The notes below the pieces were generated by a model. It was not told the DNA's origin. It ran no database searches and saw nothing but the letters and a program-made list of their open reading frames with translations. From the NCBI GenBank assembly GCA_028715415.1, contig JAQURX010000005.1, positions 64,043 through 128,042 of the forward strand: a stretch of DNA of 64,000 nucleotides, read 5' to 3'. Positions 24,107 to 49,996 of the stretch are shown here, in pieces (positions within the stretch are counted from its first letter, which is position 1; every line of letters starts with the position of its first letter). Position numbers and translations under genes: made by a program. This DNA is from Candidatus Omnitrophota bacterium. Its GTDB lineage: Bacteria > Omnitrophota > Gorgyraeia > Gygaellales > Profunditerraquicolaceae.

Positions 24107-24284
24107 TGGATCCCTGCTGGAGTTTATCCCTGCGAAAGCAGGGACAGGGATGACAATCGCATGTCATTCCCGCGCCCTTCTGTCATTCCCGCGTTCTTCA
24201 TGTCATTCCCGCGAAAGCGGGAATCTACGCTATTTAGTGGATCCCTGCTTTCGCAGGGATGACATTGCCCTGCAGGGATGACAG
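24107..24284. repeat. Composite palindromic element filling the oppA-oppB intergenic region
   Basis: B-variant hairpin + three TGTCATTCCCGCG(CCCTTC) half-sites + hairpin A + hairpin B + extra CCCTGCAGGGATGACA. Confidence 0.85.
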
Positions 24285-28267: not shown

Positions 28268-28343
28268 AATATATATTAAATACAATAATTTGTCAAGAAA
28301 AAACCTCAATATACCTTGACAAAGCCCTGCAATAGGATATACT
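28268..28343. promoter_or_regulatory. Back-to-back divergent sigma70 promoters (pgk on minus, exosortase on plus) whose -35 hexamers form the palindrome TTGTCAAG-N18-CTTGACAA
   Basis: Minus: TTGACA(28296-28291)-N17-TATATT(28273-28268). Plus: TTGACA(28316-28321)-N16-TATACT(28338-28343). Confidence 0.45.
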
Positions 28344-28383: not shown

Positions 28384-29202
28384 ATGATAAATCTTAACTA
28401 TATAATCTGGGCACTTATCGCAACCCTATATGCCCCAACATTCTACTTCCTTTATCGTTCAGGCTGGGAATATATTGACTATACCCATGCTTATTTCATT
28501 TTACCTGTCTCTTTAGGGCTTATTTGGTATAAGCGGGCTTACCTAAAGAAAGCTTTTGATAAATCAATCCCTACTGTTGTTTCAAAAACAGGCCTGGCGC
28601 TTTTTATTGCTTCAGCTGCGCTCTTTATTATTGGCTATAGAAATGGTTTTAATTTTATTGCTACATTCTCCCTCATACCTCTTTTATTCGGCTTATCACT
28701 TTATTTATATGGCAGAAAAGTAACCAGAGCCTTAGTTTTTCCTTTTTCCTACCTTTTCTTGCTTGTTCCTATTCCAAGCGGGATATTAGACAGTATTACT
28801 GTTCCCATGAGATACGGAATTTCAGTTCTCACCGAAATTATACTTAAAACATTTAACTATCCAATAACCAGAGAGGGCTTGCTTTTAAAACTACGAAGCC
28901 ATGAAATTTATATGGGCGCTCCTTGCAGCGGGTTCCGATCGCTTATCACAATGATTTCTTTAGGGCTTGTATACGTATATTTAAGCAAGAATAACCGGAA
29001 AAATAAGATTCTTCTCTTATCATCAATTATTCCGTTTGCTTTAATCGGAAATCTCATAAGAGTAGTCTCAATGTGTTTGGTAACTTTTTATTTTGGCGAT
29101 TCAATTGGCCAAAAATACCATGACATAAGCGGATATATGATTTTTGTTTTCCTTATTCTTGGTTTAGTCGGTTTGGAAGCATTACTTAATAAACGAAAAT
29201 GA
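28384..29202 (+). CDS. Exosortase family protein (EpsH/XrtA-like polytopic membrane transpeptidase)
   Basis: 272 aa, ~8 TM; conserved Cys in APCSGFRS and downstream Asn/Arg in GNLIRV, as in exosortase/archaeosortase active sites; adjacent to four PEP-CTERM genes. Confidence 0.6.
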   Translation: MINLNYIIWALIATLYAPTFYFLYRSGWEYIDYTHAYFILPVSLGLIWYKRAYLKKAFDKSIPTVVSKTGLALFIASAALFIIGYRNGFNFIATFSLIPLLFGLSLYLYGRKVTRALVFPFSYLFLLVPIPSGILDSITVPMRYGISVLTEIILKTFNYPITREGLLLKLRSHEIYMGAPCSGFRSLITMISLGLVYVYLSKNNRKNKILLLSSIIPFALIGNLIRVVSMCLVTFYFGDSIGQKYHDISGYMIFVFLILGLVGLEALLNKRK

Positions 29203-29834
29203 AAAATAAAAAAGAAATTCTAGTTATAGCAGTTCTTTTATTCTCCGTCGCTGTAAGCTTCGGGATTCCAAAACCAAAATACGAAAGCCTTAATATATTA
29301 TCAAAAATTGACGTGCCATGGAGAACCAATTACTGGATTAGCCAAGACGTATCAAATAAATTTGACACTCGGGACCAGCGATATAACTTTATCGGTAATA
29401 TCTTCGGCCGCGCTTACGTTAACAGGTTAGGCGAGAGATTGCTTTTCTTAATCTTAGATGCGGGGAATTTCCATAATCCAAAGGTTTGCTTTGGAGGTTC
29501 AGGATATAAAATTAGTGACTTCGCTGACACTCAACTAAAAGTTGGAAACAAGGTTTTTGTAGCTAAAACACTTTATGTTCAAAAAGAATCAGAAAATACG
29601 CTACTTGTTTACTGGATCTGCATTGATAAAAAGATTGTAAACTGGGGTGGACAAAAGATACTTGAATTCTGGAATACATTATTGAATAAAAAGAAAGCGG
29701 GATTAATGCTGCGGCTTGAAATCCCTACAACCGAAGGAAACATTCCAAACGCTCAAAGACTTGCCAATGAATTCCTCAACGAAATCGCTTCAAACATCAA
29801 ACCCGACCAAGCCGAATACCTCTTTGGTAAATAG
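29199..29834 (+). CDS. EpsI-like exosortase-associated periplasmic protein
   Basis: 211 aa, N-terminal TM anchor, translationally coupled to the exosortase (ATGA overlap). Confidence 0.4.
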   Translation: MKNKKEILVIAVLLFSVAVSFGIPKPKYESLNILSKIDVPWRTNYWISQDVSNKFDTRDQRYNFIGNIFGRAYVNRLGERLLFLILDAGNFHNPKVCFGGSGYKISDFADTQLKVGNKVFVAKTLYVQKESENTLLVYWICIDKKIVNWGGQKILEFWNTLLNKKKAGLMLRLEIPTTEGNIPNAQRLANEFLNEIASNIKPDQAEYLFGK

Positions 29835-29860
29835 CATTTCTTAATTAGTATAATAATTCT

Positions 29861-30037
29861 GGATCCCTGCTTTCGCAGGGATGACAAACTATACTCCAAA
29901 TCTTAACTGTTTTTTATGCCATCTAAGCGTCTTTTATGTCATTACCTGAACCTTGTCATTCCCAGAACCTTGTCATTCCCTGAACTTTGTCATTCCCTGA
30001 ACTTTGTCATTCCCGCGAAAGCGGGAATCTACGCTAT
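29861..30037. repeat. Repeat element: hairpin B, 47-bp spacer, four tandem CTTTGTCATTCCCTGAA half-site units, hairpin A
   Basis: ggatccctgctttcgcagggatgacaa ... cttgtcattcccagaaccttgtcattccctgaactttgtcattccctgaactttgtcattcccgcgaaagcgggaatctacgctat. Confidence 0.85.
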
Positions 30038-30328
30038 ATCCTTATATAAATCTCTCCAATGGGAATTTCTTTTCTCAATCAACTCAATCTTCCAAACTCT
30101 TTTCCACTTTTTTATACATTTCTCACGAATAATCGCACTATTGATATCTTCCGCTATTTCATAGTAAACTAAATCGTGGACACGATATTTTTTAGTAAAT
30201 CCTTCAATAATATCATTTTTATGTTCGTATACCCTTAACAACAAATTATTAGTAACCCCAGTATATAACGTACCTTTCTTTCCGCTTGCCATAATATATA
30301 CATAATAACTTTTATCCATATCTGTCAT
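30029..30328 (-). CDS. GIY-YIG nuclease-domain protein (UPF0213-like, ~96-99 aa)
   Basis: YYVYIMASGKKGTLYTGVTNNLLLRVYEHKN = GIY-YIG motif with conserved R and E. Last three codons and TAG lie inside hairpin A; annotated ATG lies inside a TGTCATTCCC half-site, so the true start may be the M at 30319. Confidence 0.75.
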   Translation of the reverse strand: MTDMDKSYYVYIMASGKKGTLYTGVTNNLLLRVYEHKNDIIEGFTKKYRVHDLVYYEIAEDINSAIIREKCIKKWKRVWKIELIEKRNSHWRDLYKDIA

Positions 30329-30425
30329 TCCCGCGCCCTTCTGTCATTCCCGCGCCCTTCTGTCATTCCCGCAAAAGCGGGAATCTACGCTATATAGTGG
30401 ATCCCTGCTTTCGCAGGGATGACAA
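30323..30425. repeat. Repeat element: 3x TGTCATTCCCGCGCCCTTC + hairpin A (GCAAAAGC loop variant) + hairpin B
   Basis: tgtcattcccgcgcccttctgtcattcccgcgcccttctgtcattcccgcaaaagcgggaatctacgctatatagtggatccctgctttcgcagggatgacaag. Confidence 0.85.
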
Positions 30426-30428
30426 GAG

Positions 30429-30941
30429 TTAATTTAACCCAAACCTTGGCTTAGGTGGCTCAGGTGGTGGCTCAAGCAGCTTCTTTATTGCTTCAAAGAT
30501 TACTTGGATATCTGTTTCGTGCAGCTGATACTTTCTTTCTAATTCTTCCAACTTCTCTGCTAATTCTTTATGCGTAAGAAGCAACTCTCGAATTCTTACA
30601 AAAGCCCGCATTATAGCGATATTAACCTGAACCGCTCTTTCAGAATTAAGAACACTTGAAAGCATCGCTACTCCTTCTTGAGTAAAAACATACGGTGTGC
30701 TTGAAGAATGTTTTAATAGCTTAAACCGGTCACAATTTGTGACCAGTTCGTTTTTCTCTTTTTCTGATAAACTAAACATAAAATCTCCTGGGAAACGATT
30801 ACGATTTCTCTTTACTGATTGATTCAATACCTTTGTTCCAATCCCATACAACTCCGCCAAGTCTCTATCCAGCATAACCTTTTTACCTCTTATCACTAAA
30901 ATCTTCGCAGCTACTGCCTCAACAATCAATTCTTTTCCCAT
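30429..30941 (-). CDS. ORF6N-domain (KilA-N-related) DNA-binding protein, paralog 1
   Basis: Start moved to MGKELIV (ATG 30941) with AAGGAGGAAGAAAAT upstream; shares VMLDRDLAELYG...RFP.DFMF...PYVFTEQGVAMLS.VLNS..A.QVNIAIMRAFV..RE.LLTHKELA.KLEELERKY with paralog 2. Confidence 0.65.
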   Translation of the reverse strand: MGKELIVEAVAAKILVIRGKKVMLDRDLAELYGIGTKVLNQSVKRNRNRFPGDFMFSLSEKEKNELVTNCDRFKLLKHSSSTPYVFTQEGVAMLSSVLNSERAVQVNIAIMRAFVRIRELLLTHKELAEKLEELERKYQLHETDIQVIFEAIKKLLEPPPEPPKPRFGLN

Positions 30942-31087
30942 ATTTTCTTCCTCCTTATGCCCAGCAAGGGCACACTGGCGCAAATCCGATAAGCGCCAGG
31001 TGCTACAACAATAGACGAAGAAACTTGCAAAATCTAACACAAAAAAAGCAAAAAAAAGCGGAGAGAATTTCTTCTCTCCGCTAATAT

Positions 31088-31168
31088 TTCATTCCCGCGA
31101 ACGCGGGAATCTACGCTATTTAGTGGATCCCTGCTTTCGCAGGGATGACAACTTCTACAGGGATGACA
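31088..31168. repeat. Repeat element: hairpin A (GCGAACGC variant) + hairpin B + 2x CAGGGATGACA
   Basis: tcattcccgcgaacgcgggaatctacgctatttagtggatccctgctttcgcagggatgacaacttctacagggatgacagttg. Confidence 0.85.
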
Positions 31169-31174
31169 GTTGTA

Positions 31175-31825
31175 TTAAGCTTTCTTTCTTTTAATACGTG
31201 AACCTACAGCTAAAGCTCCACTACCTAACAAAAACAACGCCGAGCTAATTGGCTCTGGAGTTGTTACTACATTTGCATCATGTGAAGGTGGATTAAAATA
31301 CCAGCCGTTTTGATTATTTTCATCAGAGCTTCCATAAGCATCAAAATGGAATTTTAAACCTGAATTAATGAAATCGGTGATTGAAACCGGTATTCCAATC
31401 GTTGTACCAGCAGCTACATCACCAATGGTATATTCTGTCCATTTTGCTGTCCCCTCTGGCCAAAAGATACTATGTGGAGGCAAATAAGTGTGACTTCCTG
31501 TATTAGTAAAGCTGGAATAATAATATGGTGTGGTATTAACAGTTAATTTCCAAGGCTCTGTTGGAGATGAAGTCCCCGGAATAGACAAAACAAGATGTGC
31601 ATCAAAAATAGTAGCGTCGGCAGTATTCTGGAAATTTAGAGTAAAACTCGGATTATGAGTTAGGTCACTTTCTTCTAGCCAAGGGTCACTTGAAATACCG
31701 ACTTCCTCAGCTCCCGGAATACTTAACCAAATCTTAGCCTTACCACCGTTATTATCAGGAGGAGTTGCCCAAGCTGAACCAGCAACAAAAAACAAACATA
31801 CAAGCGTTAAAAATAGTTTTTTCAT
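31175..31825 (-). CDS. PEP-CTERM sorting-domain secreted protein
   Basis: Signal peptide; C-terminus TTPEPISSALFLLGSGALAVGSRIKRKKA (PEP motif, TM helix, basic tail). Confidence 0.7.
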   Translation of the reverse strand: MKKLFLTLVCLFFVAGSAWATPPDNNGGKAKIWLSIPGAEEVGISSDPWLEESDLTHNPSFTLNFQNTADATIFDAHLVLSIPGTSSPTEPWKLTVNTTPYYYSSFTNTGSHTYLPPHSIFWPEGTAKWTEYTIGDVAAGTTIGIPVSITDFINSGLKFHFDAYGSSDENNQNGWYFNPPSHDANVVTTPEPISSALFLLGSGALAVGSRIKRKKA

Positions 31826-32490
31826 CTTACACCTCTTCGTTTTCTTAATCCAACTAATGCGGCTCCGCCTAACAAAAACAACGCACTGCTAATCGGTTCA
31901 GGAGTTGCGGTAATTTTAGTCGTAAAAAATCTCTGGCAATATAAATCATTTCCGCCATTTGTCCAAATCCATTTAGCATTATTATCAATATTAGGATAAT
32001 CTATGTTCCATTTTCCACCATAACCCTGCCCATCATAGGCAAGCTCATCTATAACTCCAAAATTATGAAAATCAAATTGCTCAAGGCGCACTGTCCAATC
32101 AGTTGCGTTGGACAATAAATATTGCGTTCCATTTGCAAACTTAAACCCGCTGCCAGACAATGTAAAATCGCCAATAAAGCCAGCTAAATTAGTTATAGTA
32201 GCAGCACCCAAAACAGTCAAATAATAATCGTGTCCCGGAGTAAGCTGTGTGCTGAAATGAGTTTGAGCGGAATCAGGATCGGGATTAGCGCTTGAACCGC
32301 CGGTTATTAATTGAGCATTCAAGAAATTGGCATCCGTATCATTAATCCAGACGGTAAATTGCCTATCAACAACTACATCCCCTGATAATGTTACTGTAGA
32401 AGCATAAACTGGAGTAAATACGACGAGGGAAATCAATGCAACTAAAAATAATTTAAATTTCATTGGAACCTCTTTGTTTCGGGTTATCAA
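31822..32490 (-). CDS. PEP-CTERM sorting-domain secreted protein
   Basis: C-terminus TATPEPISSALFLLGGAALVGLRKRRGVR. Confidence 0.7.
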   Translation of the reverse strand: MITRNKEVPMKFKLFLVALISLVVFTPVYASTVTLSGDVVVDRQFTVWINDTDANFLNAQLITGGSSANPDPDSAQTHFSTQLTPGHDYYLTVLGAATITNLAGFIGDFTLSGSGFKFANGTQYLLSNATDWTVRLEQFDFHNFGVIDELAYDGQGYGGKWNIDYPNIDNNAKWIWTNGGNDLYCQRFFTTKITATPEPISSALFLLGGAALVGLRKRRGVR

Positions 32491-32618
32491 TTTAGAATTA
32501 CGAAAATCCCGGAAGGATATTTCAACTTTATTATACTAAATCTGACGTACCTGTCAACACTTTTTTAATCTATTTATAAACGAATTTATAAATCAAATTA
32601 GGAAGGAATATCCCTCGC

Positions 32619-32741
32619 TGTCATTCCCGCAGAAGCGGGAATCTACGCTATATAGTGGATCCCTGCTTTCGCAGGGATGACAACTTCTACAGGGATGACA
32701 ACTTCTACAGGGATGACAACTCCTGCAGGGATGACAAATAG
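32619..32741. repeat. Repeat element: hairpin A (GCAGAAGC) + hairpin B + 4 tandem CTTCTACAGGGATGACAA units
   Basis: tgtcattcccgcagaagcgggaatctacgctatatagtggatccctgctttcgcagggatgacaacttctacagggatgacaacttctacagggatgacaactcctgcagggatgacaaatag. Confidence 0.85.
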
Positions 32742-33398
32742 TTAAACCTTCTTTTTTAACCTCACCCCAATCGCCAGCGCCCCGCTTCCTAACAAAAATA
32801 ACGCACTGCTTATCGGCTCAGGCGTAGCTTTAACAGATAAATATGCAGATGGAGGATATTCTAACGATCTAAATGCTACAAAAGGCTGCCCAGGAGCAAG
32901 AATATCCTGCTCCTCTTTCCTTATATTAAAACCAACATAACTTTTACCAGAGCTAATTAAATCATGAACAACAGAAGTAACATCATAATTAAGCGTAGAT
33001 TGATCATTGAATGTAATTGAACCAATGATGTTGCCGCGGGCGTAATCATCAAAGTCTAAGTATCCATCGCCAGCATAAGAATAGATACCTAACGTGTATG
33101 GAAAAGGCCCAAGGCACTCTTCAACCGTTAAATTCAGGCTTGCAGCAATAAATGAATTTTCAATACTTGAAAGAGGAAATTCAAAAAGCGCTCGTGAAGC
33201 AGAACCATTCATATTCATTGCCTGCGGATAACCAGTTGAATTTATATAATCCCCTTGCCCGTCAAACAGATTTGGATATTTACCATCAAAAACAGTTCCA
33301 TCAACCACTGGCGAAACATCAAAAGCCTGTGCATGCAATATAGGTAAAAATATTAAACTACAAAATAATACTGCTATATTTAGAATTCTTGAATTCAT
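32742..33398 (-). CDS. PEP-CTERM sorting-domain secreted protein
   Basis: C-terminus KATPEPISSALFLLGSGALAIGVRLKKKV. Confidence 0.7.
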   Translation of the reverse strand: MNSRILNIAVLFCSLIFLPILHAQAFDVSPVVDGTVFDGKYPNLFDGQGDYINSTGYPQAMNMNGSASRALFEFPLSSIENSFIAASLNLTVEECLGPFPYTLGIYSYAGDGYLDFDDYARGNIIGSITFNDQSTLNYDVTSVVHDLISSGKSYVGFNIRKEEQDILAPGQPFVAFRSLEYPPSAYLSVKATPEPISSALFLLGSGALAIGVRLKKKV

Positions 33399-33400
33399 AT

Positions 33401-34243
33401 TTATCCTTGTTTTCTTTTTCGTAATTTACGCGCTGCAAACAATCCGCTTCCCAATAAAAATAACGCACTGCTTACCGGCTCGGGAGTAACTGAAACATTA
33501 AAATTATCAAAATAAGCTTTACTTGTTCCACCTTCCAAACCAAAACCTGCGCCGAAAGTTTCTGCGGCAAGTAAAATCTTAAAGTCAGTTATATCCGGAT
33601 ATTGCACCTTAAAATCAGTTACTGTATCTTGGACCAAATCACCTTCTTGATCAACAATAGTATTCCCCGAAAGATCAGTAATCCTCATTGTTAAAGTTCC
33701 ACTTCCAGAAGCATCATAATCATACCAAATAGTGCCATCCGTTTCACTTCCTAATCTGGGATAAAGATAACCATTTCCGCTTCCACCTTCTAAAATATAA
33801 TTAGCAAATGTAGTCTGGCCTTTATTTACTTCTGGCCCGGCGCAGAAAATATATGCAGGACTTTCTAAATCACTCGGCCAAAATGCCAGCCCCATCCACA
33901 AATCGCTATCTTTGGTTGTCAAGGGGTTAAAATGAAAATCAGTTCTTGCCGAGAAATTATTATCTAATCCAAATGAAGACTGAGACCTTATCAATGACAA
34001 AGCAGTCTCGTATGTCTTGCTCCAGCCATTTTCATAGCCCGAAGGATTGACGAATTCAAAATGTCCATTTTGATCAACAGAATACAATCTCTCAGGTGTG
34101 CTCCCGCCGTAAAAACCATCCTCCCAAACCGCGGAATTAAAGAGATTATCATTAAAATCATCCGACCAGCCGCTTGTTGCCATTGCCGTTGCAGGTAAAA
34201 CAAATAAACCGCACAATATTAAACCAAAAACAAATCTTTTCAC
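33401..34243 (-). CDS. PEP-CTERM sorting-domain secreted protein
   Basis: C-terminus SVTPEPVSSALFLLGSGLFAARKLRKRKQG. Confidence 0.7.
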   Translation of the reverse strand: MKRFVFGLILCGLFVLPATAMATSGWSDDFNDNLFNSAVWEDGFYGGSTPERLYSVDQNGHFEFVNPSGYENGWSKTYETALSLIRSQSSFGLDNNFSARTDFHFNPLTTKDSDLWMGLAFWPSDLESPAYIFCAGPEVNKGQTTFANYILEGGSGNGYLYPRLGSETDGTIWYDYDASGSGTLTMRITDLSGNTIVDQEGDLVQDTVTDFKVQYPDITDFKILLAAETFGAGFGLEGGTSKAYFDNFNVSVTPEPVSSALFLLGSGLFAARKLRKRKQG

Positions 34244-34344
34244 TGTTCCTCCCTTAGTTGATTGAAAAAGTATTTATAAAGTTTTTTAATAATTCAAAAG
34301 TTATTATAAGAATTTACTGCTCAGTGTCAAGAAAATATTTTTTT

Positions 34345-34410
34345 CTGTCATTCCCGCACCCTTCTGTCATTCCTGCATCCCATCTGTCATTCCCGCGAAA
34401 GCGGGAATCC
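34345..34410. repeat. Repeat element: 2 degenerate half-sites + hairpin A (no B partner)
   Basis: tgtcattcccgcacccttctgtcattcctgcatcccatctgtcattcccgcgaaagcgggaatcc. Confidence 0.8.
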
Positions 34411-34434
34411 ATCTTGAAGTCACAATTTGTGACC

Positions 34435-34989
34435 TCAAGAATGAAACCCTATCTTAGGCTTCTCTGGTACCGAAGACGTAGTCATAAGCTGCTTGATAAC
34501 CTCGAGTATCATCTGAACATCTTTCTCGTGTAAGTTATACTTTCTCTCTAGTTCTTCAAGCTTTTGCGCTAATTCTTTGTGTGTCAATAAAAACTCCCGC
34601 AGCTTAACAAATGCACGCATAATCGCAATATTAACCTGAATAGCCTTATCTGAATTTAATACAGTAGAAAGCATTGCCACACCCTGCTCAGTAAATACAT
34701 AAGGAAGATATTTGATATTTCTCCCTCTTGTTATTGTAATAACTTCTTTATCTTCAATATGTTCGTTCAAGGTCGCAATTTGCGACCTTGAAACTCCTAC
34801 CTCCTCTTTATTCAACTGGAACATAAAATCTGCTGGGAATCTTTTTGCATTTCTTTTTACCTGCTCATTAAGTCTTTTTACCGACACCCCATACAACTCC
34901 GCCAAGTCCCTATCCAGCATCACTTTTCTTCCTCGTATAAACAGAATCTTTGTCGCCACCACCTCTGCACTAACTATGTCTTTTGTCAT
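34435..34989 (-). CDS. ORF6N-domain (KilA-N-related) DNA-binding protein, paralog 2
   Basis: 184 aa; GGAGG SD upstream of ATG at 34989; ORF6N core conserved with paralog 1. Confidence 0.65.
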   Translation of the reverse strand: MTKDIVSAEVVATKILFIRGRKVMLDRDLAELYGVSVKRLNEQVKRNAKRFPADFMFQLNKEEVGVSRSQIATLNEHIEDKEVITITRGRNIKYLPYVFTEQGVAMLSTVLNSDKAIQVNIAIMRAFVKLREFLLTHKELAQKLEELERKYNLHEKDVQMILEVIKQLMTTSSVPEKPKIGFHS

Positions 34990-35067: not shown

Positions 35068-35137
35068 ACTGTCATTCCCGCCCCTTCTGTCATTCCCGCC
35101 CCTTCTGTCATTCCCGCGAAAGCGGGAATCTACGCTA
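35068..35137. repeat. Repeat element: 2x TGTCATTCCCGCCCCTTC + hairpin A
   Basis: tgtcattcccgccccttctgtcattcccgccccttctgtcattcccgcgaaagcgggaatctacgctattt. Confidence 0.85.
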
Positions 35138-35173: not shown

Positions 35174-36850
35174 ATGAAACTTAAAACAACCCTACTTCTA
35201 ACTCTTCTAGCGCTTCTACTCCCAGTCCTCACAACCGCCTCTGATACAGACGAATGGTATCCTTACGTCATTCCTGAAAAATTAGACCAAAACTCACCCC
35301 TTAATATAGGTAAGCTCGTCTTAGACGCCCCTGCAGGTAAACATGGCTTTGTTAAGGTAAAAGAAGGACATTTTTATTTTGAAGATGGTACTAGGGCAAA
35401 ATTTTGGGGGACAAACCTTTGTTTTGATGCAAACTTTCCTACTAAAGAACAAGCAAAAATATTAGCCGACCGCATCGCCTATTTTGGCTTTAATGCTGTG
35501 CGCCTGCATCATATGGATTTTTACTTTGAACCTCGGGGGATTTTCGAAGACGTCTGCCCTGCCTTTAAAGACCCACAAATGAAAAAAACAGACGTCTTAA
35601 GCAAAAAACAGTTAGAAAAACTTGATTATTTTATTTACCTATTGAAACAACGAGGAATTTACATTGATATGAATTTATTGGTTGCTCGCCACTTTACTGA
35701 AGCTGATGGCGTGGTTGATGCGGCAATGTTAGGCATGGCTGCAAAACCATATTCAATGTTTGACAAAAAGTTAATTGAGTTACAGAAAAAATACGCCAAA
35801 GATTTACTCACTCACTACAATCCTTACACCAAACTACGCTACTGTGATGATCCTGCAGTTGCGCTTGTGGAGATTATTAATGAAACTACTCTTTCTAAAA
35901 AGGATCCAAAAACAATGCCAGATTATTATAAGAATCAACTAACTCAAACAACAGAATCTACAGATAACATTGAAAAGAGATATTACACTGAAATAATGAA
36001 ATCCTTAAAAAAAGATATCGGAGTAAAATGCCCTATTACTGGATCTCAATATTCCAGCACAAATGCATTAGAACCCTGCGACTTTATTGACAAACACGCA
36101 TATTGGGATCATCCCAAATTTCCCAACAAACCTTGGGATAAAAATGATTTCCGAATCCATAACAAATCTGCTCTTCTTGATAAAAAACTTGGCATTATTA
36201 AACTATTAATTGAGAAATCGCCTTGTAACTTGAAACCTGAAACTTGCAACCGTAAACCCTACACAGTTACTGAATGGAATCATTGCTACCCTAACCAATA
36301 CGCTTATGAAACACCAATTATCTTAGCATCTGAAGCCCTAAGAAACAATTGGGATGGATTATTTCAATTTAATTTTAGTGGAGGATGGAAACTTGAACCG
36401 GATTTTACTAAAATTGAAAGTCATTTCAACACTATTGCTAACCCCCAACAATTAATCCTGAACTCATTAAGCAGTTTAATTTTTCTTAAAAATGAAGAAA
36501 ATGAAACTTCTCTTAATAATGGAGCATATACTATCAATTCTCCTGATTTAAACGCTATCATCGGCTTTATAAAAGATAAACCTCAAGCACTTGGTCCCTT
36601 CACTATAACCACTGATCAAGATGGCGTAGTTGCACTTCTTAAGAATAATAATCAATATATATTATTTGCGATAAGCGAAGTAAAGAATACTGATTCTGGA
36701 TGGAACAAAGAAGGAAAATTTAACTGGGGCAAACCACCTGTGCTTCTTAAACGAATCAACGTTACAGTTCAATACAACGGTAAAACCATTCCTACAGATT
36801 TCTCAAAATCTCCCTATTGCGTAATTCCTACAATAACTGACACACAATAA
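35174..36850 (+). CDS. Secreted clan GH-A (GH5-like) TIM-barrel glycoside hydrolase
   Basis: Signal peptide; NAVRLHHMD, IINET (candidate acid/base NE), HAYWD and TVTEWNH (candidate nucleophile E) resemble GH5 signature regions; family assignment tentative. Confidence 0.45.
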   Translation: MKLKTTLLLTLLALLLPVLTTASDTDEWYPYVIPEKLDQNSPLNIGKLVLDAPAGKHGFVKVKEGHFYFEDGTRAKFWGTNLCFDANFPTKEQAKILADRIAYFGFNAVRLHHMDFYFEPRGIFEDVCPAFKDPQMKKTDVLSKKQLEKLDYFIYLLKQRGIYIDMNLLVARHFTEADGVVDAAMLGMAAKPYSMFDKKLIELQKKYAKDLLTHYNPYTKLRYCDDPAVALVEIINETTLSKKDPKTMPDYYKNQLTQTTESTDNIEKRYYTEIMKSLKKDIGVKCPITGSQYSSTNALEPCDFIDKHAYWDHPKFPNKPWDKNDFRIHNKSALLDKKLGIIKLLIEKSPCNLKPETCNRKPYTVTEWNHCYPNQYAYETPIILASEALRNNWDGLFQFNFSGGWKLEPDFTKIESHFNTIANPQQLILNSLSSLIFLKNEENETSLNNGAYTINSPDLNAIIGFIKDKPQALGPFTITTDQDGVVALLKNNNQYILFAISEVKNTDSGWNKEGKFNWGKPPVLLKRINVTVQYNGKTIPTDFSKSPYCVIPTITDTQ

Positions 36851-36904
36851 TGTCATTCCCGCGTCCCTTTTGTCATTCCCGCGAAAGCGGGAATCTACGC
36901 TATT
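36851..36904. repeat. Repeat element (half-site + hairpin A) filling the 50-bp gap between convergent genes; candidate bidirectional terminator
   Basis: tgtcattcccgcgtcccttttgtcattcccgcgaaagcgggaatctacgctattt; TagA stop codon (36900-36902) lies inside the element. Confidence 0.8.
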
Positions 36905-37649
36905 TCTTCCCAACCTTCTGCTTCAACACCAACCAAAAAAACTGCATATCATCAATTAAATATCGTTTCCAAAGCCTTTTAGGCTCCATAAGAATACGCC
37001 AAAACCACTCAAAACCAACTTTCCTCATCCACAAAGGAGCCCTTTTAACAACTCCTGCCTCAAAATCAAAACTCGCTCCTATCCCTATCGACAAAGGAAC
37101 TTTGTATTCATCTCTATACCTATAAATCCATTTTTCTTGCTTAGGAGTCCCTAAACCTACAAATAAAATATCCGGTTGAACCTCTTTAATCAATTCAATA
37201 ACTTGCCTATTCTCGACTTCATCTTTTTCAAACCCAAAAGATGGACAATGCGCTCTTACAATATTTATCCCACGGTATCTATTCTTAAAAGCCTTCTCCA
37301 CGCTTTCAACTGATCCCAGCCTGCCACCTAAAAAGAAAATTCTCAGTCCTTTATCGCTTGCTACTTCGCATAATTTTGGTAAAAGATCTGAACCGGATAT
37401 CTTCTCTTTTATTCCTTTCCCAAGAAATTTAGATAGCCAAATAATCGGCATTCCGTCAGTCAAAACCAATGCAGCATTATCGTAAACCATTTTTAAATCA
37501 GAATCTCTCTGCAACTGCATTAAATGATCAACATTAGGAGTTACAATAAAATGATACTTATCTTTACAAAAAGATAAACTAATACTTTCCTCTATGGCCT
37601 CAATAAAAGTAACATTATCTATTTTTGCTCCACAGATATCTATTTTCAT
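36900..37649 (-). CDS. WecB/TagA/CpsF family glycosyltransferase
   Basis: 249 aa; RIFFLGG...PKQE motif region typical of TagA/WecG. Confidence 0.8.
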   Translation of the reverse strand: MKIDICGAKIDNVTFIEAIEESISLSFCKDKYHFIVTPNVDHLMQLQRDSDLKMVYDNAALVLTDGMPIIWLSKFLGKGIKEKISGSDLLPKLCEVASDKGLRIFFLGGRLGSVESVEKAFKNRYRGINIVRAHCPSFGFEKDEVENRQVIELIKEVQPDILFVGLGTPKQEKWIYRYRDEYKVPLSIGIGASFDFEAGVVKRAPLWMRKVGFEWFWRILMEPKRLWKRYLIDDMQFFWLVLKQKVGKK

Positions 37650-38377
37650 TAATTTCTACTAAATTTGTATTTAATAACTAAAATAAATAACTTAAATCCA
37701 TCAATAATATATCGCTTAAACATCCTTTTAGGTTCAATAATTATGCGCCACAGCCATTCGAGGTGTATCAAACGCATGAATTTGGGAGCACGTGGGATGG
37801 TTCCAGACAAAAAATCCAATAATGCACCCACACCTAAACATAATCTAGGATTTAAATGTTCTCTATTTCTTGCAATCCATTTCTCTTGCAATGGTACACC
37901 CATAGCAACAAAGAGAACATCTGCTCCAGAAGAATTTATCTTCTCAATAACTTGATTATCATCCTTAAAATATCCTGAATGAGTCCCAACAATGGTAATA
38001 TTGGGAATTTTCTTACGCATATTGTCTGCTGCTTTTTTTGCAACCCCTTCCTTACCACCAAGGAAGAAAATTTTATATCTAAATTCGGTTAATTTTTCCA
38101 TTAAAACTGGACAGAAATCTGTTCCATTACAATTATCCAGCATTTTCTTGCCAAAAAACCAAATGATAAGTCGTAAACCTACGCCATCAGGGAGAACCAT
38201 GTCAGCGTTATTAAGCACATTAATATACTCATTATCTGTAAAAGATTTATAAACACAATCTGAATTCAAAAAGAAAACGGTTGACCTTTTTTTCAGCTTT
38301 ATGAAATTCATCACCGAATCAATGGCTTCCGAAAAATGTAAAATATTGCAATTTAGCAAAATAAATTTTACCATCAT
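37649..38377 (-). CDS. WecB/TagA/CpsF family glycosyltransferase (second tandem paralog)
   Basis: 242 aa; KIFFLGGKEGV, GVPLQEKW. Confidence 0.8.
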   Translation of the reverse strand: MMVKFILLNCNILHFSEAIDSVMNFIKLKKRSTVFFLNSDCVYKSFTDNEYINVLNNADMVLPDGVGLRLIIWFFGKKMLDNCNGTDFCPVLMEKLTEFRYKIFFLGGKEGVAKKAADNMRKKIPNITIVGTHSGYFKDDNQVIEKINSSGADVLFVAMGVPLQEKWIARNREHLNPRLCLGVGALLDFLSGTIPRAPKFMRLIHLEWLWRIIIEPKRMFKRYIIDGFKLFILVIKYKFSRN

Positions 38378-38378
38378 T

Positions 38379-39491
38379 TTATGTTCGCCATCCTGAAATA
38401 AATTTAAAAAACTTTGGAGAGAATTTTTGGATTAAAAATCCAAAAATCAAACAAATAGATATTGTAAAAATTATGTTTAAACAAAACAATAAAAATAAAT
38501 CTAAACTACAAGTAGGTAAGTATAATCTAAATAAAAGCTTGCGCATTATTGTCATGATTGGTTCATGTGTAGCAAATATAAAAAATGAAAAAAACGAAAG
38601 TTTTCTCAATAGGCCAACGTCTTTCAACCCACTATTCATCAAATTCAAGAAAAAAAGAACCCAAATTATAACAAACAAATTATGTAAGATTCGGCTAAAA
38701 CCAAACTTACCAAAAATTGCTATTAAATGAGCCTCAAACAAAGCAGAAACAACACTTAAAAACAATATCTGTTTCTTAAACCTTAGAATTTTTTTAAAAT
38801 CGAATTTGCTTATAGTTAAATAACCTCCTACCGCGAAAAAAAATAGTGGCGTAAAATGCCCAAAACCACTAAGAAACAATCTAAAAGGAATAGCCACTCT
38901 CGATAACCATAGTATTCCTAGAATAATAAGTGTAATCCTAGAGAAATTCTTTAATAAGTACTGTAGAATAGGAGCAATTAATACACACAAGAATAAATCC
39001 CTAAGAAACCAGAATTGGGAAACAAACGGCCATCTAGTAATACCAAGAATAGCATTTATAATAGAAAATATATTTGCATCCGGTAGCTTCCAATGACCTT
39101 GAGTAAAAAAATTACTGAGGCATGGTGTTTTATTGCAAAAATAAAGAAAAATAAGGATAATCGAGTTCCAGAATACTAAAGGAACTATAATGGTAGAAAC
39201 GCGTGATCTAAGCTTTCTAAAATAATCATCTTTTGTTAAATAATTTCTAAAAAAAAGTAACCCTGAAATAATAAAGAAAACTGGAACTGCAGCCCTAACT
39301 ACAGTATTAGTTATTAACGCAACCAAATATAAAAGCCAATAATCTTGTTGAAACGAATATGTAACATCAGAAAATCTAATTTTAAAATTGTTAGAATGAA
39401 TTAACACTATACAAATAATAAGTAAAAACTTCAAAACATTTATATTCCATAAATATTCAGTCTCGGGTGAATGATCAAATTTATTTTTCAT
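38379..39491 (-). CDS. Acyltransferase family 3 (OatA-like) membrane protein
   Basis: 370 aa, ~10 TM, N-terminal FLLIICIVLIHS motif. Confidence 0.6.
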   Translation of the reverse strand: MKNKFDHSPETEYLWNINVLKFLLIICIVLIHSNNFKIRFSDVTYSFQQDYWLLYLVALITNTVVRAAVPVFFIISGLLFFRNYLTKDDYFRKLRSRVSTIIVPLVFWNSIILIFLYFCNKTPCLSNFFTQGHWKLPDANIFSIINAILGITRWPFVSQFWFLRDLFLCVLIAPILQYLLKNFSRITLIILGILWLSRVAIPFRLFLSGFGHFTPLFFFAVGGYLTISKFDFKKILRFKKQILFLSVVSALFEAHLIAIFGKFGFSRILHNLFVIIWVLFFLNLMNSGLKDVGLLRKLSFFSFFIFATHEPIMTIMRKLLFRLYLPTCSLDLFLLFCLNIIFTISICLIFGFLIQKFSPKFFKFISGWRT

Positions 39492-39493
39492 TC

Positions 39494-40708
39494 TTAATTA
39501 TTTAGCTTTTCATATAAGTCATTCAAAACTTTTTCTGGAACAAATTCAGCAATTGAAGACACACAATTCACTTTCGAATACCTTTCTCTATTTATCACTA
39601 CTTTATTAATACTATTTGTCAATTCTTCAACAGTCCCTGAATAAGCAATCTCTCCTGAGAAACCCGCTGTTATTACTCTCTCGACCTCTCCTACGCAAGT
39701 TGAGACTACTGGTAACCCAGAACCTAATGCCTCTAAAACACTAATTGGCATACCTTCAAAGTTACTTGTTAAGACAAAAACATCGGAAGCCCTATAAAAA
39801 TCCGCAACAATCATTTGCGTCAAATTTCCTAGTAAATAAACACAGTTTCTTAAATTATGCTTATCAACGTAGCACTCTAATTGACCACGTAAATTTCCAT
39901 CTCCTACTATAATAAGTACTGCATTATCATTTTTTTCTCTAAATTCAAGGAAGGTTTCTACCAATTTCATAGGGGCCTTTTGAAGCTGAAGCCTACCAAC
40001 AAATAAAACCCAAGGACCATTACTAGTTATAATTTTAAACTCCTTTTCCAAACGGTTCTTTATTAATTCGCTTTTTTCAACGTTCAATGGAAAAAATACT
40101 TTACTATCTACCCAAGTAGGAATAAATTTCATTTTATTCTTTAGTTTAGGGTATCGTTTATTATAGAAGTTTAAACTATTTATATTAACTGAAAAAATGA
40201 AATTAAACTTATCTAAAATTATACTTTCCAAAAAGTAATAAAGTTTAGGAAAATTACTCCACAAAACCTCACTATTGCCTTTTTTAAGTTGCTTTAACAT
40301 ATCATTATGGATAACAAAAACTTTTTTTGACTTCCATTTCAAAAATAAAATTGCTGGTTCAATTCTATTAAAGAATAATACCGATTTTGGAATAAGCTTT
40401 AAATGGAAAAGTAGAAAAAGAGTAAAACGTAATGACAAAGGAACTAATGATTTAATATTTTCGTTTTCTTCAATAAATAATGGATAAAAATAAATACTTT
40501 TACCATCAAGCTCAATTTTTTGTAGAATCCTAACTTTTCGTATATTATTATCTGAAGTAACACCAATGTAAAAAAACGTAAAATTCGATGGTGCATATTT
40601 TATTATGCCTTTAATAAAAGACTCAACCCCACCAACCTTAGGACCCAAAGGGTCAGCAGGATGAATAACTGTAACAATATTTCTATTATTTAATTGCGGA
40701 AATCTCAT
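39494..40708 (-). CDS. Glycosyltransferase family 4 (GT-B)
   Basis: EGMPISVLEALGSGLPVVST EX7E-type motif. Confidence 0.8.
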   Translation of the reverse strand: MRFPQLNNRNIVTVIHPADPLGPKVGGVESFIKGIIKYAPSNFTFFYIGVTSDNNIRKVRILQKIELDGKSIYFYPLFIEENENIKSLVPLSLRFTLFLLFHLKLIPKSVLFFNRIEPAILFLKWKSKKVFVIHNDMLKQLKKGNSEVLWSNFPKLYYFLESIILDKFNFIFSVNINSLNFYNKRYPKLKNKMKFIPTWVDSKVFFPLNVEKSELIKNRLEKEFKIITSNGPWVLFVGRLQLQKAPMKLVETFLEFREKNDNAVLIIVGDGNLRGQLECYVDKHNLRNCVYLLGNLTQMIVADFYRASDVFVLTSNFEGMPISVLEALGSGLPVVSTCVGEVERVITAGFSGEIAYSGTVEELTNSINKVVINRERYSKVNCVSSIAEFVPEKVLNDLYEKLNN

Positions 40709-41837
40709 TAAATATCCTTGGAATTTGAATTTTCCAATTCAAAATATTAAAGTTTTCGTTAACCCTACAAAATCCCTTTTCACCCATAACTTTCCTTAAC
40801 TCATCGTTCTTTAATATATTTGATAACCTTGAAGAAAACAATTCAACATCTCCAAAAGGCACCAAATATCCGGTTTCATTATCCTTAATAATTTCTGCAG
40901 GTCCACCGTTATTAAAAGACACGACAGGCAAAGAATAGCTCATGCCTTCTATAATACAATTTCCAAATGGCTCATTAAAAGAAGTTAACATTAAAACATC
41001 AGCTACCAACAAAAACTCTTCAATATTATTAACATGACCGGGCATCATAACATTATCTTGAAGATTAAGATTATCAACAAGTTTTAGAAAGAATTCTCTT
41101 AACTCGCCATTTCCAAGGAAAACAAAACAAACATCTTTTCTTTGCAACAAAATCCTTTTCAATATTTCAATTGCTAAATCGTATCTTTTTTCACTTCTAA
41201 ATGCTGCAATCATCAAAACAATATATTTAAAATTCTCTAAGTTCAATTTTAATTTCAACAAATTCTTTTCTGTTTTATCAAGATTTGTCATTTTTTTAAC
41301 TTCAATACTATTTTGCAAAATAAATATTCTCTTGTTTCTTGGTAAAGTTTTCGCGGTAAATTCAGAATTAGCTATAAAAAAATCAACGAATAAATGATAA
41401 AATATTTTTTTAAGAAACCAAAACTTACTATGTAGAGATGCCCATCTTTCATACCAAATAACTTTTACTCCAAAAATTTTCGAAAACATTGCAGCATAAA
41501 AACGTTCTAGCCCAAACTGAACAATTACACAATCAATCTTATAATTTTTTATAATTTCTTTAAATATAAAATAATCTTTTATTAAATTGAATTTATATAA
41601 CTTTTTAGTAACAAAAGTTATCTTACATTTCTTAAGCTCAGTAACATAAACAGGTTCATTCAAAGAGCCTACATTAATACTGTTTTTGTATACATTGAAA
41701 CAAGAACGTACATCTTGAACCAGCCAAACAACAGAATAACCCTCCTCCTGCAAAATCTCAGTCAAATGAAAAGAAAGTTTTTCAACAGTTGAAAAAGTAT
41801 CACTTAAAAAACCAGGTATCAATAAGACATTTTTCAT
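40686..41837 (-). CDS. Glycosyltransferase family 4
   Basis: EPFGNCIIEGMSYSLPVVSFNNGGPAEII. Confidence 0.8.
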   Translation of the reverse strand: MKNVLLIPGFLSDTFSTVEKLSFHLTEILQEEGYSVVWLVQDVRSCFNVYKNSINVGSLNEPVYVTELKKCKITFVTKKLYKFNLIKDYFIFKEIIKNYKIDCVIVQFGLERFYAAMFSKIFGVKVIWYERWASLHSKFWFLKKIFYHLFVDFFIANSEFTAKTLPRNKRIFILQNSIEVKKMTNLDKTEKNLLKLKLNLENFKYIVLMIAAFRSEKRYDLAIEILKRILLQRKDVCFVFLGNGELREFFLKLVDNLNLQDNVMMPGHVNNIEEFLLVADVLMLTSFNEPFGNCIIEGMSYSLPVVSFNNGGPAEIIKDNETGYLVPFGDVELFSSRLSNILKNDELRKVMGEKGFCRVNENFNILNWKIQIPRIFNEISAIK

Positions 41838-42922
41838 CTCTTAATAATCCCTATCTCTTTATAAAAATTTAGAGTTTTGGTAGCTACTTCAATCCATGAC
41901 AACTCATTTTTAGTCATATGAAAAGAATTCTTACCCATAAGAAGTCTTTTTTCTTTGTTTTTAATCAAAAAAATCACTTTTTCTGCCAAAGAATTAATAT
42001 CGCGAGGAGAAATAATAAAACCAGTAACTCCATCTTTAACTACTTCCGGAAGACTCCCTACGCTTGTAGCTATAACAGGTTTTTTAAAAGCGTAAGCAAT
42101 CGGGACAATTCCACTTTGAGAAGCTTCAATATAAGGCAAAACAACTAAACAGCATTTCTGAAAGAGTTGAGAGACTTTATTATTATCTATATAAGAATTT
42201 ATTATTTCAAAGCTTGTTCTGTTTACAATTAGCTTTTCATACTCCTTAAGCAATTCTCCTTCACCAGCTATACAAATCTTAATATTTGGAATTTCTTTTT
42301 TTATCAACGGTTCTGCTTTAATTAAATATTGGAGCCCTTTGTATTCGAGAATCCTACCAAAAAAAAGAACTGTTGCTTCCTCCTCTTCAATAAGCTGATT
42401 ATCAATCCTACTAAAAATTGAGAATTCGCCATGCGGAATTACTGCAACTTTTTTTAAATCTGCCTTATATTTACGTATAAACTCATCTTTTATCTTATTT
42501 CCATGGACAATAAATCCATCGGCAAACCTAATTATTCTTTCCCTTAAAGGCAAAATAGATGTCATCTTATCTCCTTCATGCGGAGTAACATCATGTATAG
42601 TTACAATTAATTTACTTTGTTTATTAAGCAGAGGAAGAAGAAAATTAAACCATACATTTCCACCTTGAACATGAATAATACTGGGTTTCAATTTATTAAG
42701 CTTTAAAAAAACACCGCTTATTACAAAGAAATTTATAGGATTACTCATTCTCCGATATTTAAAAGTTTTTAGCTTCAATAAACTGCTAATCTGACTAGAA
42801 TATTTACACGCTAATCTTTCAGGTACAAACAAGACTATTTCAGTCCCTTCCAAATCAGCTAAAGCATTAGCTAATTCAATAGTATACTCAATATACCAAA
42901 AAGCTACCAATGCCACTTTCAT
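41834..42922 (-). CDS. Glycosyltransferase family 4
   Basis: EASQSGIVPIAYAFKKPVIATSVGSLPEVV. Confidence 0.75.
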   Translation of the reverse strand: MKVALVAFWYIEYTIELANALADLEGTEIVLFVPERLACKYSSQISSLLKLKTFKYRRMSNPINFFVISGVFLKLNKLKPSIIHVQGGNVWFNFLLPLLNKQSKLIVTIHDVTPHEGDKMTSILPLRERIIRFADGFIVHGNKIKDEFIRKYKADLKKVAVIPHGEFSIFSRIDNQLIEEEEATVLFFGRILEYKGLQYLIKAEPLIKKEIPNIKICIAGEGELLKEYEKLIVNRTSFEIINSYIDNNKVSQLFQKCCLVVLPYIEASQSGIVPIAYAFKKPVIATSVGSLPEVVKDGVTGFIISPRDINSLAEKVIFLIKNKEKRLLMGKNSFHMTKNELSWIEVATKTLNFYKEIGIIKR

Positions 42923-44175
42923 GAAAAATCCTCAATTAATCTCAAAAGTTTAAATCTTAACTTAGCTAGTATTCTAAAATATATATTTCCAAAATAATTT
43001 AGTAAAAAATACTTGAAAAAAACATTTTTTGACAAAAAATTATTAGACAAAATTAATGAATTATACCCCAAACTTGAATCAATATTTAAGAACTTTTTGT
43101 ATTCACCTAAGAGAAAGGCTTTGCGCCATCCGTATGCACCAGTTTTGAATTTTACCTTTTCTAACTGAGAACGCAAAACTTCTTTTTTCTCGATATGATT
43201 TAAATAAATACACCCATTTTCAACACATTTATCTAACAACTGTGACCCTTTAGACGTTCGGGCGATACCAATTGAAGTACCTTGATTATCTTCGCTAAAT
43301 CGTGGCAACCAAGCATCTCCTATTGAAATATCACCTTCTCGTCCAAATAAATCATCACAAACAAAACAGTAATCAGAAATAAAATAATAATTAGCAAAAT
43401 ATTTATTCCAATACTCTTTTGAAGGCAAAAATCTATCCTGTCCAGAGCAAGAAATAGACATTCCTCCCGGCCAGCCCCTGCCCCTATAATCTAACTTTTT
43501 TACCGATTCTTTTTTGATTTTATATTTATCCAAAATAAAATCGGTTCCTTTAAAATTAGGAACGTTTCCACAAAAAATCGTAATAACGTATTTAATTTTA
43601 GTATGTAGTTCGGGCAGAAATTCCATTGCTTTTTTTAGTCCCTTTACGTGACACGGTAAACCTATATAAAGACAATCCTCACTTTTCCTCTTAGCAATCT
43701 CTTTAAGAATTACATTTAAAGAGACAGGGCAATATTTTGCGCCCTTATTTTTCATAATATCCTTTACTGTAGTACTTAGCGTGGCTCGATACCGCAATGG
43801 ATTATCTTCATTTGGAATAACATTAACAACGCTACTTACGATTCCTTGTTCAAGACAAAAACTACTTATAGCTGTAGCTAATCCTCCAGAAGTTGATTCA
43901 ATCCGTAAATGATAATTTGCTGAGCATCCGTAAAAACAATACTGCATAGAACCAAAAAAATCATTAGGGTTTTCAATTCCTTTTAAGAGCGAATTCTGAG
44001 GGCAAATATTTAGACATAGACCACACTCTGAACAAATAGATTCATCAATTTTAGGAAGATTGATTCCCTGCTCAAAATCTTCCTTTATTTGAATAGCATC
44101 GAGTGGACACACACTGTAACAAGTACCACAACCAGTACAAATTCTTTTTTTTGTAATCTTATCTAAAATACTCAT
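42919..44175 (-). CDS. Coenzyme F420 hydrogenase/dehydrogenase beta-subunit-like Fe-S protein (polysaccharide-locus type)
   Basis: N-terminal CTGCGTCYSVCP and CSECGLCLNICP ferredoxin motifs plus FrhB-like C-terminal domain; the usual partner of a pyruvyl transferase. Confidence 0.65.
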   Translation of the reverse strand: MSILDKITKKRICTGCGTCYSVCPLDAIQIKEDFEQGINLPKIDESICSECGLCLNICPQNSLLKGIENPNDFFGSMQYCFYGCSANYHLRIESTSGGLATAISSFCLEQGIVSSVVNVIPNEDNPLRYRATLSTTVKDIMKNKGAKYCPVSLNVILKEIAKRKSEDCLYIGLPCHVKGLKKAMEFLPELHTKIKYVITIFCGNVPNFKGTDFILDKYKIKKESVKKLDYRGRGWPGGMSISCSGQDRFLPSKEYWNKYFANYYFISDYCFVCDDLFGREGDISIGDAWLPRFSEDNQGTSIGIARTSKGSQLLDKCVENGCIYLNHIEKKEVLRSQLEKVKFKTGAYGWRKAFLLGEYKKFLNIDSSLGYNSLILSNNFLSKNVFFKYFLLNYFGNIYFRILAKLRFKLLRLIEDFS

Positions 44176-49890: not shown

Positions 49891-49904
49891 AATTTATATA
49901 TTCT

Positions 49905-49983: not shown

Positions 49984-49996
49984 TAGAATAAAGACT

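Follow-up and report, generated by a model that had tools for sequence, protein, structure and literature searches.

The three sequence motifs of the EpsH family of exosortases (Cys-x-Gly, Asn-x-x-Arg and His-x-x-x-Gly) were published by Haft et al. (2006; PMC1569441), and according to the same paper proteobacterial PEP-CTERM genes mostly form operons of one gene, with long upstream regions of the sigma-54 type and a PrsK/PrsR scheme. Mutation of exosortase or PEP-CTERM genes abolishes adhesion, flocculation or biofilm formation that depends on polysaccharide (PMC12188702; PMC9850573): a Nostoc punctiforme mutant in crtB, encoding cyanoexosortase B, loses hormogonium polysaccharide adhesion and biofilm formation (PMC12188702), and PepA of Aquincola shifts polysaccharide from soluble to bound (PMC9850573). 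In the literature searched, no paper pairs PEP-CTERM with Omnitrophica, and the single paper containing both 'Omnitrophota' and 'exosortase' concerns a planctomycete. Here, a stretch of 64,000 nucleotides from Candidatus Omnitrophota bacterium (assembly GCA_028715415.1, contig JAQURX010000005.1, positions 64,043 to 128,042; referred to as the window) was analyzed, in which genes for an exosortase, for the exosortase-associated protein EpsI and for four PEP-CTERM proteins (P1 to P4) stand beside a polysaccharide locus. We consider it highly probable (roughly 0.8) that this is a genuine Omnitrophota exosortase/PEP-CTERM sorting module, encoded with some of its own substrates beside an exopolysaccharide export locus, and that the DNA shared by the four tails is an old paralogous module held by selection on the peptide. 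What was established by computation comprises the family membership, the motifs and the signal architecture, the coupling of genes, the consensus matches of promoters and terminator, and the conserved neighborhood.

The exosortase exceeded the curated cut-offs of three hidden Markov models (HMMs), with 179.5 bits for PF09721 (cut-off 25.7), 132.7 bits for TIGR02602 (105.55) and 62.7 bits for TIGR04178 (23). The HMM alignment spans positions 5-231 of the 241-position 8TM_EpsH model, and five strong hydrophobic segments were obtained in a crude Kyte-Doolittle scan with a strict threshold. The published motifs are present as APC181SG (C181-S-G183), GN223LIR226 and H246DISG250, and their defining residues do not vary among 28 aligned clade members (the exosortase of the window and 27 relatives); C181, R226 and H246 are the putative catalytic residues. 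The EpsI gene starts within the exosortase gene, overlapping its stop by 4 nt, and the two are translationally coupled. EpsI scored 53.4 bits for TIGR02914 (cut-off 42.8) and 59.0 bits for PF11984 (cut-off 26.1) and has a single hydrophobic segment (residues 6-24), corresponding to an N-terminal signal-anchor helix. A sequence search of the PDB returned no relatives of the exosortase or of EpsI.

All four PEP-CTERM proteins carry the sorting signal at their extreme C-terminus, where the motif TPEP[IV]SSALFLLG[SG][GA] is followed by a hydrophobic stretch and a basic cluster. When the last 39 residues were searched with TIGR02595 (cut-off 16), P1, P2, P3 and P4 scored 19.7, 24.3, 18.4 and 20.7 bits, respectively; PF07589 (cut-off 20.7) was passed by P1 (21.6) and P3 (21.3) only. 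Each protein has exactly two hydrophobic segments, one N-terminal and signal-peptide-like, the other the C-terminal helix; signal peptides were judged by eye from a basic n-region, a hydrophobic core and an A-x-A-like site. In BLASTP comparisons among P1 to P4 the similarity was carried by the C-terminal tail, with clean matches of about 30-36 residues, and longer alignments reached 25-35% identity with E values at best of 1e-7 to 1e-10. No further tails of this type were found elsewhere in the window.

The four genes are organized as two bicistronic pairs, as deduced from the 2 nt gap between P4 and P3 and from the overlap of the P2 stop with the P1 start (ATGA). Each pair is preceded by a perfect sigma-70 promoter consensus. 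Four such perfect sites occur in the 64 kb, where 0.11 are expected; the other two TTGACA-N16-18-TATAAT sites lie at 6108-6136 and 10892-10919, both on the minus strand. The P2 open reading frame (ORF) extends over 31822-32490, its likely true start being the ATG at 32463, which is preceded by the ribosome-binding site AAAGAGG. P4 starts with GTG behind AAGGGAGG, and the tail-coding part of P1 covers 31175-31261. Sigma-54 promoters were considered and rejected: the pattern TGGCAC-N5-TTGCW occurred at chance level, and none was located upstream of P2 or P4. Rfam and tRNA scans for an RNA element or an integration site were empty.

These results agree with an earlier, sequence-only reading of the window, all elements of which were found where it had placed them. 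It had proposed an exosortase from the Cys in PCSG and the Asn and Arg in GNLIRV, a coupled EpsI and four PEP-CTERM proteins with unrelated N-terminal domains, and had named failure of HMM searches as the outcome that would overturn it; exosortase, EpsI and the tails all scored above curated cut-offs, and the similarity among P1 to P4 sits in the tail. The identification of an exosortase/PEP-CTERM/EpsI system adjoining a polysaccharide locus is correct and is already contained in public annotation. An NCBI protein named 'exosortase/archaeosortase family protein [Candidatus Omnitrophica bacterium]' is 100% identical to the exosortase ORF, and the proteins identical to P4 and P1 are named 'PEP-CTERM sorting domain-containing protein' and 'choice-of-anchor N protein', respectively.

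The passengers in front of the tails are probably small, beta-rich and carbohydrate-binding. The choice-of-anchor N passenger of P1 has orthologues at 57-67% identity, and the P1 homologues (5/5) all keep a PEP-CTERM tail. An AlphaFold2 model of P1 from a five-sequence alignment is a beta-sandwich with a predicted local distance difference test score (pLDDT) of 65, for which Foldseek returned weak generic beta-sandwich or CBM3-like matches in the PDB (template modeling (TM) score 0.33-0.45, E about 1e-3); a function for P1 drawn from these matches was rejected as too weakly founded. The P3 passenger reached 21.3 bits for CBM96 (cut-off 26) and 25.8 bits for DNRLRE (cut-off 34), both below cut-off. 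The P4 passenger (33488-34177) is a near-orphan. A word-indexed search of 5.8e9 proteins gave no homologue, and a search of 1.84e9 representatives gave a sole distant full-length homologue (P0129, 36% identity), itself a PEP-CTERM protein, together with repeated, short matches to very large proteins (over 2000 aa). Its AlphaFold model made without an alignment had a pLDDT of 36.5 and was unusable. The motifs 'WSDDFNDN...W' at its start and 'YFDNFNV' at its end presumably resemble those of concanavalin-like lectin folds.

No named subtype in NCBIfam release 20 covers the 28-member clade. The exosortase of the window scored far below the curated cut-offs: 170.4 bits for XrtV (cut-off 313), 159.6 for XrtB (275) and 137 for XrtA (208), with the other Xrt/Crt models lower. 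The best E values among the 28 members were 1.6e-60 for XrtV and 3.1e-58 for XrtB. Named relatives with identities of 54-63% come from Omnitrophota, Poribacteria, Brocadia and Nitrospirae. Eight loci were compared, those of the window and of seven relatives. Exosortase and EpsI genes are adjacent in all eight, and tails of the same subclass occur within 10 kb of the exosortase in six of them: four in the window, five in L001, two in L002, five in L005, six in L034 and three in L036. In the Brocadia and Nitrospirae loci no PEP-CTERM tails were found within 10 kb of the exosortase, a looser search included. The layout of the window is matched by L005, in which exosortase and EpsI genes, four PEP-CTERM genes on the minus strand, an ORF6N gene, a gene for a 573-aa protein and a WecG gene follow each other; among the species-representative genomes scanned, no locus reproduces the window.

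A fully degenerate DNA pattern for PEP[IV]SS[AV]LFLLG matched 28 stretches among 185,579 species genomes. Most belong to metagenome-assembled genomes (MAGs) of Omnitrophota or of uncultured Planctomycetales/Planctomycetia, two to Nitrospirae and one to Lentisphaerae, and these taxa overlap those of the exosortase clade. The tail genes form tandem arrays of up to seven. In total, 88 tail-bearing ORFs were collected, which fell into 49 passenger clusters. Within this set P1 has an orthologue in L005 and P2 a 32%-identical homologue in L010, and no homologue of the P3 or P4 passenger was present.

The sequence-only reading had further claimed that the tail DNA is conserved across all four genes and offers a ready substrate for homologous exchange of passengers. 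The anchor block was defined as 15 codons (45 nt) starting one residue before PEP. Its summed pairwise matches amount to 209 of 270, compared to 178.6±7.4 expected when the same peptides are back-translated with the codon usage of the window (reached in 0 of 5000 simulations), and 43 codons are identical, compared to 25.9±4.5 expected. Conservation above chance at the DNA level is thus real. The 32-nt consensus given earlier is exact in P2 and P3, has two mismatches in P4 and more than three in P1. Part of the codon excess is lineage-wide. Compared to the background of each locus, position-specific codon preferences were found in 22-28 genomes, with Glu as GAG (above/below background in per-genome sign tests 19/7), the second Pro as CCG (22/5), the first Ser as AGY (20/7), Ala as GCG (15/7) and Gly as GGC (26/2); avoidance of G runs may lie behind the last. 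A conserved RNA hairpin in the anchor was rejected as a candidate, as CCGAGC...GCTCGG forms only when the second Ser is TCG (in some L005 tails) and is absent from P2 to P4.

The first alternative holds that the anchor DNA is a portable patch of homology, so that recombination in the tail swaps passengers or gene conversion homogenizes the tails. Several observations agree with it. The anchor identity exceeds the expectation from peptide and codon usage, and the number of identical codons also exceeds that obtained with family-wide position-specific codon frequencies (43 compared to 28.6±4.8, p about 0.005); P3 and P4 share 39 of 45 nt with an exact run of 19 nt; passenger diversity on a constant tail is extreme, as seen in the 49 clusters; and tails look genome-specific even on orthologous passengers, the P1 orthologue of L005 having distal residues in the L005 style. 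RecA-dependent recombination, however, usually needs about 20-30 bp of perfect identity. The anchor is a poor substrate for it, because pairwise identities are 33-39 of 45 nt (73-87%) and the longest exact shared runs measure 8-19 nt. Moreover, the similarity ends sharply at the borders of the selected peptide, as conversion tracts would not: from 0.77 within the block, identity falls to 0.37 immediately before it, to 0.40 over the remaining helix and to 0.26 past the stop codon. P1 and P3 have the most similar tails (22 of 27 residues in common), yet the codon is identical for only 8 of these 22 residues, about as expected if synonymous codons were drawn at random. All five P1 homologues keep the same anchor type, and over all genomes the codon identity of tails within a genome is barely higher than between genomes (0.415 and 0.351). 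The recombination alternative is therefore unlikely, and the proposal of a ready exchange substrate is not upheld. The shared tail DNA is better explained mainly by selection on the peptide and old paralogous spread of the tail module than by ongoing homologous exchange. The peptide-level selection probably represents co-adaptation to the cognate exosortase; such a peptide-level property of the tails was already described for PEP-CTERM in 2006 (PMC1569441).

A second alternative goes further than the sorting module proposed here. It envisages a distinct, nameless exosortase subtype in Omnitrophota and some neighboring lineages, with the signal [TVA]PEP[IV]SS[AV]LFLLGG and rapidly turning-over arrays of small, often orphan, lectin-like substrates beside the enzyme, the DNA of the signal being under nucleotide-level constraint. 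Such a constraint was considered because the codon preferences recur in about 25 genomes with exosortase identities of only 55-60%, and translation kinetics at membrane insertion or cassette-like exchange of tails are possible causes. Taken as a whole, this extended proposal appears improbable to us, to about the same degree as recombination in the tails.

It is very improbable that the four PEP-CTERM genes were acquired recently, as a mobile or variable island, and do not encode native substrates of the neighboring exosortase: the two ORF6N (KilA-N-like) genes bracket the cassette as diverged direct repeats (65% nucleotide identity over 685 nt), a GIY-YIG gene lies beside it, seven of the twelve ATTCCCGC-N4-GCGGGAAT palindromes of the window fall at 30.0-36.9 kb and the equivalent place in relatives holds AbiEii, transposase or 23S_rRNA_IVP genes, but the G+C content of the cassette (0.38-0.39) equals that of its flanks, no tRNA gene or integrase was found, the arrangement of exosortase, PEP-CTERM array, ORF6N gene, 558-aa protein and WecG gene recurs in L005, the taxa carrying the tail subclass overlap those with the exosortase clade, and vertical inheritance fits because the P1 orthologue of L005 (63% identical) is about as diverged as its exosortase (60%).

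The sorting module with old, peptide-selected tails is thus preferred, and some points weigh against it. The codon excess persists over family-wide frequencies, and a somewhat more recent common origin of P2, P3 and P4, or rare gene conversion between them, is conceivable. The functional link to the neighboring polysaccharide is drawn from adjacency, the models of the XrtA locus not being reached. The hints of carbohydrate binding by the passengers are weak, with CBM96 below cut-off in P3, low TM scores for P1 and a failed model for P4. Export, retention, cleavage, transfer and display are attributed from the family, and the genome data cover the 64 kb of the window.

By analogy with the family, the module would operate as follows. 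P1 to P4 would be produced from the two bicistronic operons with their strong promoters, the N-terminal signal peptides would direct them to Sec for export, and the C-terminal helix would retain them in the membrane. On the outer membrane face, the polytopic exosortase would recognize the motif TPEP[IV]SSALFLLG, and Cys181 together with Arg226 and His246 would cleave the tail near PEP and pass the protein to an acceptor, EpsI acting as a presumed obligatory partner. The passengers might then be displayed at the cell surface or within the matrix of polysaccharide produced by the neighboring locus. The shared 45 nt would reflect a modular tail, distributed long ago by paralogous expansion, whose peptide is held nearly constant by the cognate exosortase and whose codons show some position-specific preference common to the lineage. 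They would not be a working recombination site.

The features of this region are ordered as follows: pgk and tpiA (minus strand); the exosortase and EpsI genes (plus strand) and a patch of repeats resembling repetitive extragenic palindromic (REP) elements; a GIY-YIG gene, an ORF6N gene and P1, P2, P3 and P4 (all minus strand); and a second ORF6N gene (minus strand), a gene for a secreted protein of 558 aa (plus strand) and the long polysaccharide locus (minus strand). Coordinates are given in Table 1.

Table 1. Position, strand and basis of assignment of the features discussed, numbered from the first letter of the window.
Feature	Position	Strand	Basis
Sigma-70-like promoter upstream of exosortase, TTGACA-16-TATACT (11/12)	28316-28343	+	Consensus match; predicted function
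Exosortase, EpsH family, 272 aa, subtype without a name	28384-29202	+	PF09721, TIGR02602, TIGR04178
EpsI, exosortase-associated protein, 211 aa	29199-29834	+	TIGR02914, PF11984
Small GIY-YIG gene, 99 aa, bystander	30029-30328	-	PF01541, E 1.6e-13
ORF6N gene, copy a, bystander	30429-31040	-	PF10543, E 1.4e-29
Intrinsic-terminator-like hairpin after P1, 11 bp stem followed by a T run	31057-31082	-	Sequence scan
P1, PEP-CTERM protein, choice-of-anchor N passenger, 216 aa	31175-31825	-	NF038141, 48.7 bits (cut-off 40)
P2, PEP-CTERM protein, 213 aa from ATG 32463	31822-32463	-	TIGR02595 tail
Perfect sigma-70 promoter before the P2-P1 pair, TTGACA-16-TATAAT	32530-32557	-	Consensus match
REP-like palindrome cluster and 18-nt tandem units between P3 and the P2 promoter	32621-32736		Sequence scan
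P3, PEP-CTERM protein, 218 aa	32742-33398	-	TIGR02595 tail, PF07589
P4, PEP-CTERM protein, 280 aa, near-orphan passenger	33401-34243	-	TIGR02595 tail
Perfect sigma-70 promoter before the P4-P3 pair, TTGACA-16-TATAAT	34303-34330	-	Consensus match
ORF6N gene, copy b	34435-34989	-	PF10543, E 6e-33
Secreted 558-aa protein between exosortase region and polysaccharide locus	35174-36850	+	Conserved position
Wzx/Wzy-dependent exopolysaccharide locus	36900-55393	-	Pfam matches, TIGR03025
Wzc-like kinase	50359-51948	-	Far end of polysaccharide locus
Wza-like exporter	51972-52823	-	Far end of polysaccharide locus
Priming transferase	52843-54249	-	TIGR03025, 453 bits (cut-off 295)
Beta-barrel outer-membrane protein	54251-55393	-	PF10082

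The polysaccharide locus encodes two WecG-type glycosyltransferases, two acyltransferases, three GT1 glycosyltransferases, an FrhB-like protein, a pyruvyl transferase, Wzy, Wzx and a cupin. The association proposed by the sequence-only reading is real, as polysaccharide genes adjoin the sorting genes in the window and also in L002, L005 and L035, whereas the distance of 15 kb is not: the locus is continuous and starts 2.7 kb from P4, and the Wzc, Wza, priming-transferase and outer-membrane protein genes that had been noted are its far end. Models of the XrtA locus scored below cut-off (TIGR03013 240.7 bits against 393, TIGR03018 94.7 against 231, TIGR03007 40.6 against 279, TIGR03027 87.6 against 180 and TIGR03016 59 against 91), and therefore the locus is regarded as a generic Wzx/Wzy locus neighboring the sorting genes and not as a classical EpsH1 cluster. 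In its center (38000-50000), which holds the glycosyltransferases, Wzy, Wzx and the pyruvyl transferase, the G+C content is 0.27-0.32, compared to 0.38-0.40 in the flanks; such a low value is typical of horizontally exchanged, serotype-determining cassettes.

The secreted 558-aa protein had no Pfam or NCBIfam match. L002 and L005 have homologues of it in the same place, with 68-69% identity (69% in L005, where the gene lies beside WecG), and it is thus better conserved than the exosortase. It may be a GH5-like, polysaccharide-processing glycoside hydrolase, because weak similarity to GH5 mannanases was found in the PDB (E 1.4e-3). An ORF6N gene at the syntenic spot in L005 is 54% identical to copy b.

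Small 23S_rRNA_IVP (PF05635) genes were seen near the exosortase in L034 (10839-11213, between exosortase and EpsI), L005 (17082-17438) and L004 (15762-16079), AbiEii genes in L005 and L036 and a transposase gene in L036. The exosortase neighborhood seems to tolerate insertion of selfish or defense genes.

REP-like palindromes are spread over the intergenic regions of the window, with 12 copies of ATTCCCGC-GAAA-GCGGGAAT and 10 copies of ATCCCTGC-TTTC-GCAGGGAT. They are often paired and preceded by tandem units of 17-19 nt (TGTCATTCCC..., TGTCATCCCTG...), and had no match in Rfam. Apart from the cluster listed in Table 1, sites lie at 11398-11469, 24126-24260, 29860-30050, 30320-30442, 31089-31168, 34343-34408, 35084-35129, 36862-36894, 49907-50354 and 56097-56226. 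They appear to yield spurious ORFs containing 'SFPRKRES' or 'VIPAKAGI', for example 29916-30164, 34258-34533, 36850-37125 and 49997-50359.

The analysis adds a documented PEP-CTERM/exosortase example for Omnitrophota, a phylum with almost no experimental biology. Mildly new are the exosortase clade without a named subtype, the clustering of substrates with the exosortase in Omnitrophota and the position-specific codon preferences in the signal DNA. The rest corresponds to what automated annotation already gives, and the recombination idea that set the earlier reading apart is unsupported. The compact layout, in which the enzyme, EpsI and four small substrates behind consensus promoters are combined with a complete polysaccharide locus, could suit a heterologous reconstitution of exosortase activity.

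Among described systems, XrtA/EpsH1 of Proteobacteria (Haft et al., 2006; PMC1569441) shares with the module of the window an exosortase of about 270 aa with the same three motifs, a separate EpsI gene directly downstream, multiple PEP-CTERM substrates with unrelated passengers, adjoining genes for polysaccharide biosynthesis and export, and tails that are closer within a genome than between genomes. In contrast to XrtA/EpsH1, the XrtA model is not reached here (137 compared to 208 bits), the locus models for kinase, exporter, chain-length determinant, glycosyltransferase and outer-membrane protein all stay below cut-off, neither PrsK, PrsR nor PrsT was found among the genes examined, the PEP-CTERM genes lack an upstream sigma-54 site, and the substrates are encoded in bicistronic pairs behind perfect sigma-70 promoters. 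Exosortases V (NF035943) and B (TIGR03113) are the best-scoring named subtypes, with an end-to-end alignment (6-270 of 270), and the B-type and V-type EpsI models are the best for the separate EpsI of the window, but the exosortase scores are far under the cut-offs (170/313 and 160/275). Sortase A with LPXTG proteins and archaeosortase A with PGF-CTERM proteins resemble the module in the combination of an N-terminal signal peptide with a C-terminal motif, helix and basic cluster, in an enzyme with Cys, Arg and His and in the many unrelated passengers on one tail. Sortase A, however, is a non-homologous enzyme with a different motif and cell envelope, and the archaeosortases are only distantly homologous (archaeosortase C 39 compared to 100 bits), again with a different motif and envelope. 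Cyanoexosortase B belongs to another exosortase subfamily (CrtB model 50.9 compared to 300 bits), and the floc_PepA model, which describes the PepA type of Aquincola and Zoogloea, reached only 13-14.5 bits on the tails (cut-off 80). Both nevertheless provide experimental precedents, and by analogy with the exosortase and PEP-CTERM mutants a role of the Omnitrophota sorting system in adhesion, flocculation or biofilm formation is suggested.

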